A DNA stretch of 64,000 bases from an uncultured Alphaproteobacteria bacterium (GCA_944391705.1 CALXUN010000003.1:26208-90207); one strand, 5' to 3'; positions 11,452-14,636 are shown, numbered from the stretch's first letter. A program made the numbers and translations. The notes: generated by a model from the sequence alone, not told the origin.

Positions 11452-11828
11452 CAGACTGCTCCATTAATTACTAATGGCAAAAAAAGAAAAAAGAAAAAAT
11501 ATTTTTTGAAATTTGTATAAAGCCATGATAATAACTCCTAAGAAGAAAATAAACTTTAAGTTGATTATGTTAAAAAGAATACAAACTAACAAGCTAAAAA
11601 TACAACTTTTATACAAAATGTTTTTGTTTTGCTCTTATAAATTGTATATCGCCGCAAATATTCGTAATCATTTATGTTTTTCTAATGTAGGTAATTTATT
11701 GATATAAGGGTATATCTTTACGCGAAAGAATATATTTTGGCGTGATGAAGATTGTTAAAATTCAACAGACAAATTAGTTCTTTATAACATAAAATTTTGC
11801 TTTATTTTAGTGTTTTTTGCGCTTAAAA

Positions 11829-11844
11829 TTAACCATTAGTTAAC
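11829..11844. promoter_or_regulatory. imperfect palindrome TTAACCATTAGTTAAC upstream of hlyB fragment 1
   Basis: About 20 bp upstream of the ATG at 11865. Its counterpart before copy 2 is a perfect palindrome. Confidence 0.35.
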
Positions 11845-11864
11845 TATCGGATGAAGTGGTAATC

Positions 11865-12380
11865 ATGAATAACACAACACAAATGATAGATACCGGGCTG
11901 GCATGCTTTGCCATTATGGCCAGCTATTTTGAAAAGCCGGTATCATTGGAACAAATCAGGCACAAATATGACAGGCAAAATTCTTTTTTTGAAGAATACG
12001 AACTTTTGCAGCTTGCAAAAGAATTTTCTTTTAAAGCTCGTTTTATTGATACCACCTGGGAAAGGCTGGATAAAATTAATTTACCGGCAATAGCTCAGGA
12101 TAAAAATAAAAGGTACTTTGTTATCGGCAAAGTAGTGGACGGAAAAGTTCTGGTACAGGATCCGGCTGGCGGCAATCGTCCGCAGGTCTGGACTAAAGAT
12201 GAATTTTTAGCAAGATGGAACGGCAGGCTCTTAATGATGACCTGCCGTGAATTTATTAATGGTAAAAATCGTAAATTTGATTTTTCATGGTTTATTCCTT
12301 CGGTAGTTAAATACCGAAGGTTGTTTGGTGAAGTGATATTAGCCTCGTTCTGTAAAACTTTTAATTCTATCAATAGATAG
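11865..12380 (+). pseudogene. 5' fragment of an hlyB/cyaB-type T1SS ABC-exporter gene (C39-like domain, copy 1), truncated
   Basis: MNNTTQMIDTGLACFAIMASY...KFDFSWFIPSVVKYRRLFGEVILASF aligns with the HlyB N-terminus (IDYGLYALEIL..., [27 protein letters not shown]). Thr stands in place of the catalytic Cys, as in the HlyB C39-like domain (CLD). Homology ends at about 12350 and is followed by ...CKTFNSINR*. There is no TMD or NBD. Confidence 0.8.
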
Positions 12381-12583
12381 TAAAAACAGCTAATGCATAT
12401 TGCTATAATAGAAAAGACTACATAGAAAAAATCTATAAAATTACTTTCTCCGAATAATTTTGTATTGACAGGACTGTCAAAAATTGTTTCCGGTACATTA
12501 ATAATTTTATATCCATTTAATATATAAATTATCAATATACAGAAAACTAAATATGGTGTTATTTTATTTAATGTGTTTCTCAT
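12095..12583 (-). CDS. small membrane protein (true C-terminus uncertain)
   Basis: The first ~75 codons (12358-12583) encode two hydrophobic helices in AT-rich DNA. The rest of the ORF runs antisense through hlyB fragment 1 and is probably a read-through artefact. Confidence 0.35.
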   Translation of the reverse strand: MRNTLNKITPYLVFCILIIYILNGYKIINVPETIFDSPVNTKLFGESNFIDFFYVVFSIIAICISCFYYLLIELKVLQNEANITSPNNLRYLTTEGINHEKSNLRFLPLINSRQVIIKSLPFHLAKNSSLVQTCGRLPPAGSCTRTFPSTTLPITKYLLFLS

Positions 12584-12608
12584 TTTTACTCGTTACTTCG
12601 TTATTTGA

Positions 12609-13562
12609 TTATGATTGAAATTTAATATATTTCTCATGTGGCAAATGTTTGATTATAAAATCAATAGATAACTTTTCAGCGCATGAATATTCCCCTTTAG
12701 TTGTATGTAAAATTAAGTCTAAGTCGTTTCGTTTGCGATTAAATTTCGTAAATTTTAGATCAACAAGAATTTGCTTATTTTCATCGAAAGTAGAAATGGT
12801 AATTTTTTCTGCATCTTTATAAACACAAAGGATTATGTTATTTTCTTTGTATTTCTTTCTTAACTGTCTTGTACCTTCACTGCAATAGCTAGACGGAACA
12901 TATAAAATTTTATTTTCATATTCTTTCTCTAAATCCACGGGAAATACAATGTTAGGTTGCCATGTGGCTTTTTCGTTATCTTGATGAAAATATGTTTCAG
13001 GTAGCGTTATTGGAGAAAATGAAACCTTCGCCATATTCTGTTTACAGTCTGCTTCAGATGGAGCGCCTATCCAATCATCTGTTATGATGATACTTGCCGG
13101 AATAAGAAACAGAATGATAAAGAATGGAGTAAAATATTTTGACTTTTTAAAGATTAAGATAAAAGCCCAAACAACAGCAGGAAAGGAAAATGGATGCAAA
13201 AAACAAATTGGATTTCCACAGTCACTGATTGTCCGTCTGTAAAAATATAAAATTGTCATAAATACGGCAAACTCAATTAGTTTTACTACCCTTTTTAAAA
13301 ACCTCTTTTCAAAATAAGCATAAAATAAATTTAAGATGGAAATTACAAATGTCAGAATGTAACATAATATTCCCATTAACATTACTGGCAAAGCGCAATC
13401 CAAGCAGTCCAAAGAAATTCTTGTGGCTGAAGGATTATAAAATAAATCATAGTAAAGCCCAATGAGGTATAAAACAACATAAATAAGCAGGATATTCTGT
13501 ATGCTTTTCCACCAAGAAAATTCACCATCTTTGTAAAAGAAATATTGTTTAATTTTATTCAT
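12609..13562 (-). CDS. membrane protein (about 4 N-terminal TM helices plus a ~150-aa soluble C-terminal domain)
   Basis: 317-aa ORF in the AT-rich block, with Cys-rich loops. No motif. Confidence 0.5.
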   Translation of the reverse strand: MNKIKQYFFYKDGEFSWWKSIQNILLIYVVLYLIGLYYDLFYNPSATRISLDCLDCALPVMLMGILCYILTFVISILNLFYAYFEKRFLKRVVKLIEFAVFMTILYFYRRTISDCGNPICFLHPFSFPAVVWAFILIFKKSKYFTPFFIILFLIPASIIITDDWIGAPSEADCKQNMAKVSFSPITLPETYFHQDNEKATWQPNIVFPVDLEKEYENKILYVPSSYCSEGTRQLRKKYKENNIILCVYKDAEKITISTFDENKQILVDLKFTKFNRKRNDLDLILHTTKGEYSCAEKLSIDFIIKHLPHEKYIKFQS

Positions 13563-13930
13563 AAATTCCTCTAATAAATATATTTACCCGCCTTCTCTTC
13601 CTATAACAGCAAAAAACTCTGTGCACCTTATTGCACAGAGTCCTTTTACATGCTGGTTTATAAACAGATCTTTTTGTTAAATTAAGATAAGGCATTAGCT
13701 ATTGTCCTGTTAAAATAATTCTGCATTTATCTTTGCGTACTATAAATTATATTGCAAGTAATTTATTTTTTATTTTGTGCTAGCTTTATTCGATTATAAA
13801 AATAAAAGCAAAAACAATTTGTTACTAATGTTATGTGTTGTGTATAAACAATATATCAAGCATTAGTTGATATAATTTAGTTCTTCATAAAATAAAATTT
13901 TACTTTATTTTCTGTTTTTTGCCGCTAATA

Positions 13931-13945
13931 TTAACCAATGGTTAA
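13931..13945. promoter_or_regulatory. perfect palindrome TTAACCAATGGTTAA upstream of hlyB fragment 2
   Basis: 22 bp upstream of the ATG at 13968. Homologous to the site at 11829-11844. Confidence 0.4.
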
Positions 13946-13967
13946 CCTAAGTATGAACGAGTAAATA

Positions 13968-14636
13968 ATGAATAATACATCACCAAAGATAGATACCGGA
14001 CTAGCTTGTTTTGCAATTATGGCAAGCTATTATGAAAAGCCAATATCTCTTGACCAAATCAGACATAAATATGATAGGCAGAACTCTCATTTTGAAGAAT
14101 ATGAACTTTTGCAGTTAGCAAAAGAGTTTTCATTTAAGGCTCGGTTTGTTGATACAACATGGGAAAGGCTTGATAAAATTAACTTACCGGCAATTGCACA
14201 AGATAGAAATAAAAAATATTTTGTTATCGGCAAAGTGGCTGATGATAAGGTTTTGATTCAAGACCCGGCAAGAAGCAATCATCCTCAAGTATTAACGCAA
14301 GATGAATTTTTAGCAAGATGGAACGGCAGGCTCTTAATGATGACCTGCCGTGAATTTATTAATGGTAAAAATCGTAAATTTGATTTTTCATGGTTTATTC
14401 CCTCGGTAGTTAAATACCGAAGGTTGTTTGGTGAAGTGATATTAGCTTCATTCTTTTTACAGTTATTTGCGCTGGTGTCTCCGCTTTTGTTTCAAGTTGT
14501 AATTGATAAAGTATTAGTCAATCGAGGGCTTTCAAGTCTTGATGTTTTAATGGTCGCGCCCTATTCTCCAGTATCTTTGTTTTTTTGCCAAAATCGGTTC
14601 AAAATACCCCAAATATATACTTTTTTGAAGGTCTGA
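13968..14636 (+). pseudogene. 5' fragment of an hlyB-type T1SS ABC-exporter gene (copy 2), truncated at the direct repeat
   Basis: ...KFDFSWFIPSVVKYRRLFGEVILASFFLQLFALVSPLLFQVVIDKVLVNRGLSSLDVLMVA matches HlyB ...[36 protein letters not shown] up to nt 14551. There the 99-bp repeat begins and the ORF drifts into unrelated sequence. Confidence 0.8.

Follow-up and report, generated by a model that had tools for sequence, protein, structure and literature searches.

How does a bacterium come to carry, 2.1 kb apart, two 5′ fragments of the gene for an RTX-toxin exporter, and do the fragments still serve any purpose? This question is raised by a 64,000-nucleotide stretch of DNA from an uncultured Alphaproteobacteria bacterium (GCA_944391705.1 CALXUN010000003.1:26208-90207; hereafter the window, with positions counted from its first letter), in which an earlier reading based on the sequence only (the sequence-only reading) described two diverged fragments of an hlyB/cyaB-type gene, each behind a palindrome, and proposed cassette shuffling at a secretion locus. 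The window comes from a human-gut metagenome scaffold of 153.6 kb (ENA ONAT22-1 scaffold_80), its nearest genomes are metagenome-assembled genomes of uncultured gut Alphaproteobacteria labelled 'uncultured Azospirillum' or 'Alphaproteobacteria', and its G+C content is 41.8% overall and 27-32% at 10-14 kb. We compared it with 80+ related gut alphaproteobacterial loci, whose contigs or loci are referred to below by L-numbers. Taken as a whole, the evidence makes it highly likely that this is a decayed and recombined exporter locus of a type I secretion system in an uncultured human-gut alphaproteobacterium, at which the exporter is dead and the two fragments are non-functional 5′ remnants of hlyB.

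Two truncated copies of hlyB

The two hlyB stubs, copy 1 (11865..12355, plus strand) and copy 2 (13968..14550, plus strand), form direct repeats with a period of 2103 bp. Both matched Pfam Peptidase_C39 (PF03412), with E = 4e-22 and 3e-24, and copy 2 additionally matched TIGR01846 (type_I_sec_HlyB) over profile positions 1-184 of 694, at 181 bits far under the family cut-off of 725, and aligned with residues 5-194 of E. coli HlyB (E = 5e-42); these matches bear out the earlier description of two hlyB-type C39-like fragments. The truncation points given by the sequence-only reading likewise held. In copy 1, hlyB sequence is left at 12351-12355, after 162 codons, so that the stub, broken at codon 163, holds the C39-like domain only and stops before the first transmembrane helix is complete; in copy 2, judged against strain L083, it is left at 14550/14551, at a '99-bp repeat', after 195 codons and just past the first helix. 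The reading frames run on to 12380 and 14636, respectively. Neither stub matched ABC_membrane or ABC_tran, which represent the rest of the transmembrane domain and the ATPase domain; tblastn returned no hlyD match anywhere in the 64-kb window, and no full-length hlyB or hlyD was found there, the large open reading frames (ORFs) encoding PNPase, AsmA, PtsP and others.

Thr10 of the stub aligned with Tyr9 of E. coli HlyB, which we take to be the position of the catalytic Cys, and a Tyr aligned with the His of the HlyB 'GRHF' motif, presumably the position of the catalytic His. Both stubs would thus carry degenerate C39-like domains in which the Cys and the His of an active C39 peptidase are both replaced. 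The statement that Thr replaces Cys 'as in HlyB' has to be corrected, since E. coli HlyB has Tyr at the aligned position. Compared with the exporters E. coli HlyB and Bordetella CyaB, the stubs are alike in the aligned N-terminal domain and first helix and in the non-Cys residue at Tyr9, and their intact relatives are alike in having hlyD directly downstream and RTX substrates nearby; the stubs differ in their length, in the missing ATPase and in having Thr for the HlyB Tyr and Tyr for the His. Short 'hlyB fragments' from a first protein search were considered as recurrent stubs and rejected, because the listed proteins were all ≤389 aa and several hits were frameshifted genes.

The exporter operon is intact in a sister strain

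Most of the related loci long enough to show it carry one hlyB (~720 aa) with hlyD (466 aa) directly downstream. In L179, a search with a full-length query identified an hlyB product of 718 aa (P0125), the N-terminal region of which, 103 residues from the DTGLACF motif, is identical to copy 1. The order on this contig is hlyB, hlyD, a phosphatase gene, a 304-aa gene and then a flank like that of the window, with L179 7001-7318 being 99.7% identical to window 14545-14862, which comprises the right copy of the '99-bp repeat' and the start of a Fic gene. L179 accordingly reads as a close relative with the exporter operon intact at the same chromosomal site; since operon and shared flank occur together there, copy 1 can be regarded as the resident allele and the stubs as derived damage.

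The same contig, together with L083, accounts for the end of copy 2. At the truncation point, hlyB of L083 continues as '...GATGTTTTAATGGT|GGCATT' and the window as '...GATGTTTTAATGGT|CGCGCC', and the sequence preceding CGCGCC in both L179 and the left repeat copy of the window is 'TTTTGATGGT'. Comparison of the three sequences places the junction in a 9/10-bp microhomology, TTTT(A/G)ATGGT, and copy 2 to all appearance ends at a microhomology-mediated deletion, which in L179 coordinates spans ~4.7 kb and takes in the remainder of hlyB together with hlyD and two genes. The right copy of the repeat (14546..14647, no strand assigned) has this junction as its left edge; the left copy (6274..6375, no strand assigned) lies ~90 bp downstream of a tRNA-Met gene and differs from the right copy at two positions. 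In L179, the intact hlyB-hlyD locus is natively bordered on its right by the sequence of the left repeat and the 90 bp before it. The repeat was also considered as a mobile element, an idea that we discarded, as the window has only two copies and, of the other lineages, only L179 has any; it is best described as duplicated tRNA-flank sequence, the right copy being bounded by the deletion.

Damage to exporter genes was also seen elsewhere among the relatives. L152 (10001-11539) contains what looks like an in-frame fusion, joining residues 10-227 of hlyB to residues 144-463 of hlyD, which is an independent case of exporter damage, and L084 and L159 have frameshifted hlyB and hlyD, possibly through sequencing errors.

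Copy 2 belongs to an imported unit

Beside copy 2 lies an intact gene for a 317-aa membrane protein (12609..13562, minus strand) with four predicted hydrophobic segments, which shares 97.6% DNA identity with its homolog in L144 and 99.6% with that in L083. It is followed by a small ORF with two hydrophobic segments (12356..12583, minus strand; 76 codons before the junction), which is cut or fused at 12355/12356 and for which no homolog was found in related loci except contigs of the same unit. The 317-aa gene, the intergenic region and copy 2 recur in L083 at 98.8% identity in a different genomic context, where unrelated housekeeping genes come after the unit and the truncation of hlyB lies elsewhere, near residue 341; stub 2 alone is 97.9% identical to L083. 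The copy-2 unit therefore has a counterpart at another site, and it appears to be foreign to this locus, with copy 2 as an imported allele. Among the 12 differences between copy 2 and L083, 8 fall within codons 6-16 (13984-14015), a cluster that may mark another small patch of recombination at the 5′ end.

The 317-aa gene has itself moved on a smaller scale. In L144, its homolog directly precedes the gene for an RTX protein of >2800 aa, the intergenic region is unrelated and hlyB is 77% identical. The block of identity (window 12627-13571 = L144 8571-9515) reaches from 9 bp before the start codon of the gene to 18 bp short of its 3′ end, which points to the recent transfer of a single gene-sized cassette between lineages. 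In the window, the gene stands without a toxin partner and is probably an orphan immunity gene.

Two further features were observed at the 5′ end of this gene. The first ~80-95 bp (~25 codons, MNKIKQ.FFYKDGEFSWWKSIQNI) of otherwise different membrane-protein genes beside hlyB are 87-96% identical across lineages (window 13493-13586; L006 9446-9524; L118 88-181; L146 6048-6126), and this shared segment may be a recombination arm or a common N-terminal segment. Further upstream, at 13616-13641, that is 54-79 nt before the 317-aa start, there is a perfect hairpin with a 10-bp stem (ACTCTGTGCA...TGCACAGAGT) followed by TTTTTTG on the minus strand (the scan listed it on the plus strand), which looks like an intrinsic terminator just ahead of the gene.

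That each stub stands beside different membrane-protein genes, as the sequence-only reading had it, was thus borne out. Its proposal of cassette shuffling stood in part: shuffling is real at this type of locus, but the units that move are toxin N-terminal/membrane-protein cassettes, and the hlyB stubs are mere debris.

A tract of copy-2 type within copy 1

Homology between the two copies starts at 11767/13870, ~95 bp before the ATG, in agreement with the relatedness of ~100 bp of upstream sequence noticed earlier, and ends at ~12351/14454. Identity along this stretch is far from uniform. Coding identity is 79.5% up to 12195 (the first ~330 bp), a single mismatch is present in the 148 bp from 12196 to 12343, and the following 12 bp contain five. 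The maximum chi-square breakpoint fell at 12196 and was reached by 1/5000 permutations, the longest identical run of 103 bp was reached by none of 5000, and third codon positions differ at 46/110 sites before the breakpoint and at 2/50 after it. Over codons 1-111, the ratio of nonsynonymous to synonymous divergence (dN/dS) between the copies is 0.055 at dS = 1.64. The mosaic pattern and the mostly synonymous character of the differences in the sequence-only reading were accordingly upheld; the nearly identical end tract is present as described, but is 148 bp rather than ~170 bp long.

In a set of 698 pairs of related hlyB genes with ≤85% identity upstream, the tract region had a median identity of 85%, and 98% was reached by only two pairs; because relatives diverge there, the near-identity of the copies is not due to sequence constraint. 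With L179 as a reference for the parental types, a three-sequence test gave a clean switch. From 11771 to 12249, copy 1 agrees with L179 at 80 of the 92 sites where L179 and copy 2 differ, and from 12250 to 12343 it agrees with copy 2 at 17 of the 18 sites where copy 2 and L179 differ; the sole exception, at 12299, has the state of L083, the other copy-2-type strain, and at 12347 copy 1 is L179-like again. This pattern supports the recombination between copies that had been proposed and, given the parental reference from L179, indicates a transfer that ran from copy 2 into copy 1, over a tract of 12196..12343 (plus strand) in which the informative sites span 12251-12343. The transfer most likely took place by short-patch ectopic gene conversion between direct repeats 2.1 kb apart. 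With a donor-type tract of ≤148 bp in a repeat that is elsewhere 80% identical, and with a clean three-sequence pattern, the case resembles known ectopic short-tract conversion and has nothing unusual about it; the recipient is a pseudogene stub.

The upstream region and its palindrome

The conserved upstream regions of copy 1 (11767..11864, plus strand) and copy 2 (13870..13967, plus strand) are 78% identical to each other despite dS = 1.64 in the adjoining coding region, and the homology of the copy-1 region to copy 2, L179 and L083 starts in every case at 11767. Each contains the palindrome TTAACCANTGGTTAA, which is perfect in copy 2 (13931-13945), L083 and L180 and has one mismatch in copy 1 (11829-11843) and L179, so that the palindromes themselves exist as reported. 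Across the five sequences of this sub-clade, the whole 95 bp upstream is equally conserved, with a mean column identity of 86%, above the neutral expectation at that dS. The 95 bp are probably a functional promoter or leader, within which nothing singles out the palindrome.

The sequence-only reading had taken the palindrome for the operator of a dimeric regulator and suggested looking for a regulon. The motif is absent from 46 other distinct orthologous hlyB upstream regions, which are non-palindromic at this place and typically read AAAATTATTACAACC, and a scan of 1.16 Mb of related loci found no site upstream of hlyB outside the sub-clade. A scan of the window returned the two homologous sites and one match with two mismatches, against 0.68 expected; perfect 7-N-7 palindromes number 11 in the window and ~4 in shuffles. 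A promoter scan found 19 candidates against 17.6 expected in shuffles, which is no enrichment and has no bearing on the palindrome. Absence from other genomes and loci, which the sequence-only reading had itself listed as a refuting outcome, is thus what was observed. An operator role is unsupported for a motif that is confined to one sub-clade, conserved no better than its flanks and not found at other loci; a lineage-specific operator there, though conceivable, has no support, and the palindrome appears to be part of a clade-specific upstream region that both copies inherited by common descent.

These data also bear on the reading in which the 5′ fragments of hlyB serve as functional homology arms for cassette shuffling, with the palindrome as an operator controlling each cassette. 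The gene upstream of hlyB differs in copy 1, copy 2 and L179 and switches at a fixed boundary ~95 bp before the ATG, one stub contains a recombination tract, the upstream 95 bp are conserved well above neutral expectation and the half-sites TTAACCA and GTTAAC are invariant in the five sub-clade sequences, all as such arms and operators would have it. Within the stretches examined, however, a second hlyB 5′ fragment or tandem stubs were found at none of the 80+ other related loci, the intact operon of the sister strain marks the stubs as derived damage, and the palindrome is missing from orthologous promoters, has no other good match in the window and is of a kind common here. We therefore consider working arms with a dedicated operator unlikely and retain decay of an exporter locus as the explanation.

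Function, duplication and assembly as alternatives

The stubs might have been kept because stand-alone C39-like proteins of 171 and 222 aa are at work, for example in binding unfolded RTX substrates or in serving another exporter. The C39-like domain of E. coli HlyB binds substrate, both frames are open behind conserved upstream regions, and several human gut samples share the identical arrangement. Those samples probably represent one recent strain, so that their identity says little about selection; moreover, the tails at the junctions are arbitrary read-through, copy 2 is cut elsewhere in L083, and other lineages show free-standing domains only through frameshifts or truncations. Retention for such a function is accordingly very unlikely.

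Still less probable is an old tandem duplication inside this genome, from which both stubs would have arisen by drift and partial re-homogenisation. The copies lie 2.1 kb apart as direct repeats and, outside their own allele lineages, are each other's closest match (79.5%, against 70-77% to other species). A dN/dS of 0.055 at this dS, however, means that the alleles diverged deeply under strong purifying selection, as functional and intact genes rather than as decaying tandem copies. Each allele type furthermore has relatives of its own, L179 and L180 for copy 1 and L083 for copy 2, and the neighbours of copy 1 are unrelated to the genes that separate the stubs.

An assembly artefact, in which mis-joined reads of two co-existing strains created the tandem arrangement or the identical tract, has in its favour the short contig L086, in which copy-2-type sequence gives way, within the identical tract, to the copy-1 junction, as it would along a chimeric path, but is scarcely credible given that the same structure (6.8-17 kb) was recovered at 99.96-99.99% identity in three assemblies from two studies (ONAT22-1, two samples; BRZ, one), that short contigs from further samples agree with it and that one contig stops inside the repeat, as expected of a true repeat. 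L086 itself (ENA ERZ28613991 scaffold_105993; 1.8 kb, from another sample) corresponds to window 12761-14400 joined to 12299-12470, and could be a chimera of the assembly or else genuine, as a recombinant or tandem variant.

Several points weigh against decay in the form proposed here. The window covers 64 kb of the genome, and a second, intact hlyB-hlyD pair may lie elsewhere. Both stubs are open ORFs with conserved upstream regions, and stand-alone C39-like domains may be expressed from them. With regard to the tract, its right boundary is weak, being defined by 2-3 sites (12344, 12347); a single crossover with a donor already carrying a stub is a possible alternative to patch conversion, and L086, if a real recombinant, would speak for such a donor. 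The roles of toxin and immunity protein proposed below, finally, draw on gene order, co-variation and hydrophobicity, with no family matches for the proteins concerned.

A probable toxin remnant and its partner gene

Beside copy 1 lies the remnant of a toxin gene (9549..10652, minus strand; 367 aa), in which a variable N-terminal domain (residues 1-181) is joined to a complete FrpC-like self-processing module (residues 182-351). The N-terminal domain has one 19-residue window above the hydropathy cut-off. The module aligned with positions 1-172 of 179 of the FrpC self-processing module structure (PDB 6SJW; E = 1e-41), and PF26745 is recorded for the called gene. The remnant stops 16 residues past the aligned module; no match to RTX repeats was found in this gene, the ORF ending before any repeats or secretion signal.

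At the cleavage position, the remnant has Ser181-Pro182 (10104-10112, minus strand), and all 26 distinct modules of the gut clade (L003, L004, L006, L007 and others) begin with Ser-Pro-L-x-L-D-L-D-G-D-G and not with Asp-Pro. The Asp-Pro bond is the defining 'clip-and-link' cleavage site of FrpC-like modules (PMC7078468). Modules of the Ser-Pro type may undergo no self-cleavage, or cleavage by a different chemistry.

The start of the toxin gene overlaps by 8 bp an intact gene for a 268-aa membrane protein with six predicted hydrophobic segments (10645..11451, minus strand). In 9/9 distinct gene pairs with a full-length domain match, on ten contigs, a homolog of this gene stands next to the matching N-terminal domain of the toxin, directly on its upstream side; such homologs are absent beside other N-terminal types, except for two weak matches in L119 and L123, which are loci without a match to this domain. 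Because gene order and co-variation are as expected of a toxin-immunity pair, we infer that the 268-aa gene is probably the cognate immunity gene. The membrane proteins, the toxin N-terminal domain and a 180-aa ORF had no Pfam or NCBIfam match.

Intact relatives show what the remnant is likely to have come from. Genes with an FrpC-like self-processing module lie on the opposite strand of most of these loci, usually divergent from hlyB, where at least one pair consists of a membrane-protein gene and then a giant RTX protein. In the RTX protein of an intact locus, a variable N-terminal domain is followed by the FrpC-like module and the RTX repeats, with a secretion signal presumably at the C-terminus. 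L007 offers an example, in which the full-length homolog measures 2071 aa, matches the RTX-repeat family in 17 stretches and has a homolog of the 268-aa protein (283 aa) ahead of it; nearer hlyB, the same locus holds another small gene and a truncated gene, of 410 aa, for an N-terminus and module. Truncated module fragments number 2-4 per locus in several loci (L003, L007, L009, L109 and others), and across loci the module is conserved and the N-terminal parts differ.

The surroundings of the locus

The variable region is anchored by a tRNA-Met gene (6111..6187, plus strand; ARAGORN, with an Rfam tRNA score of 57.5 bits), the only hit of an Rfam scan of 5.5-16.5 kb, and a tRNA-Met adjoins the same secretion locus in L006, L095 and L125. 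Downstream of it, Pfam families of called genes and the ORF list identified a DUF2924 gene and a 207-aa N-terminal fragment of a large serine recombinase (6699..7756, plus strand), which together appear to be a decayed integrative element; the recombinase homolog is full-length (545 aa) in L125, between tRNA-Met and the secretion locus, and a homolog is likewise placed in L095. Then comes a MetK-like gene (8646..9584, plus strand; 312 aa) with matches to the N, M and C families of S-AdoMet synthetase, the last over 4-73 of 138 positions, the 3′ end of which overlaps the 3′ end of the truncated toxin gene. The combination of DUF2924, large serine recombinase and MetK-like gene recurs between a tRNA and the secretion locus in several species (window 6699-9584; L125 637-7115; L095; L128), the tRNA being tRNA-Met in L125 and L095 and tRNA-Glu in L128, which has no MetK-like match.

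The region was also compared with a tRNA-linked integrative island, which would have an intact recombinase and att-type direct repeats at its two ends. The direct copies of the '99-bp repeat' bracket 8.3 kb beside the tRNA-Met, but the recombinase is truncated and the left edge of the right copy is a deletion junction. The intervening sequence appears largely to be wreckage, made up of the DUF2924/recombinase fragment, a MetK-like gene with an incompletely matched C-terminal domain, the toxin remnant and the two stubs. Beyond the right copy is a gene for a Fic protein with a helix-turn-helix domain (14783-15826), in which three tandem 12-bp units (15618-15659) encode SSQK SSQK SSQK in the linker that joins the Fic domain to the C-terminal winged-helix domain. 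The sequence after this gene (15813-15924, ending ...ACAACCA) resembles the stretch just before the repeat in L179 (within 6800-7318), and both resemble the 3′ end of tRNA-Met (...GCAACCA), which suggests that several islands are stacked at tRNA-Met-like attachment remnants.

Relation to known systems

A close described arrangement is frpD-frpC of Neisseria meningitidis, which shares the full self-processing module and a small upstream gene that pairs with the N-terminal domain (PMC5233953; PMC7078468). The clade of the window differs from it in the Ser-Pro junction, in partners that are multi-pass membrane proteins and not a lipoprotein, in polymorphic N-terminal domains and in the accumulation of truncated spare copies. 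These last features recall contact-dependent inhibition (CDI; cdiA-CT/cdiI), Rhs, Neisseria MafB and tpsC cassettes, in which a variable toxin domain is likewise set on a conserved region beside a co-varying gene (PMC5472700), and in which spare copies likewise keep a conserved piece, recombination boundaries are sharp and single cassettes have recently been exchanged horizontally. Unlike in those systems, the variable domain here is N-terminal, the spares lie on the 5′ side by the exporter gene and export would be of type I; 5′-side spares and an N-terminal variable domain mirror a secretion signal at the C-terminus. A search of the full-text literature found, within that literature, no paper on type-I-secreted polymorphic toxins with self-processing modules and orphan cassettes.

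Gut Bacteroidales carry islands of orphan immunity genes, known as acquired interbacterial defence gene clusters. The window is like them in having intact probable immunity genes without working toxins, in a recombinase-associated variable region beside a tRNA. It differs in that there are only two candidate immunity genes, the recombinase is truncated and no repeated array is present; any link between recombinase and cassette capture is only putative.

Course and meaning of the decay

From the parental types and junctions described above, we infer the following order of events. Copy 1 would be the resident hlyB, still next to its native upstream pair, of which the membrane protein (268 aa) is intact and the toxin ends after the module. 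A foreign 2.2-kb unit, consisting of the small ORF, the 317-aa gene, the intergenic region and 195 codons of another hlyB, would have broken copy 1 at codon 163. The microhomology deletion would next have cut copy 2, removing the rest of hlyB, hlyD and the two genes behind it, and ectopic conversion would have placed ≤148 bp of copy-2-type sequence at the 3′ end of copy 1. Each of these steps, an imported cassette, a microhomology deletion and a short recombination tract, is ordinary, and none is new.

The only full-length toxin-locus genes that remain here are the two membrane-protein genes. Their retention as orphan immunity genes after loss of the weapon would be the most economical functional reading, and the stubs would persist only by linkage to the promoter region that they share with the divergent genes.

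Beyond the window, the locus family as a whole may be a so far undescribed type-I-secreted polymorphic toxin system of gut Alphaproteobacteria, a mirror image of CDI and Rhs, with the window as an orphan-immunity depot that resists the toxins of neighbours. We put this forward tentatively, as a possibility with the odds against it. In such a system, an N-terminal toxin, an FrpC-like Ser-Pro module and an RTX carrier may be combined in one protein, with the immunity gene upstream and spare copies lying against the divergent exporter gene.

The locus provides a worked example of how a secretion locus decays, in which a cassette breaks the exporter, a deletion removes what is left of it and a short tract blurs the difference between the copies. 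Comparison of the relatives further shows that many uncultured gut Alphaproteobacteria carry hlyB-hlyD beside RTX proteins with interchangeable N-terminal domains and co-varying partners, and that single partner genes move between lineages, one of them having 97.6% identity where its flanks have only 77%. The surrounding locus family, with its 5′-side spares and Ser-Pro modules, appears to be a more interesting lead than the stubs themselves, its function being putative. If the pairs are true toxin-immunity pairs, type I secretion would join the routes by which polymorphic antibacterial toxins are delivered in the gut, and the window would be a case of immunity genes outliving the weapon.

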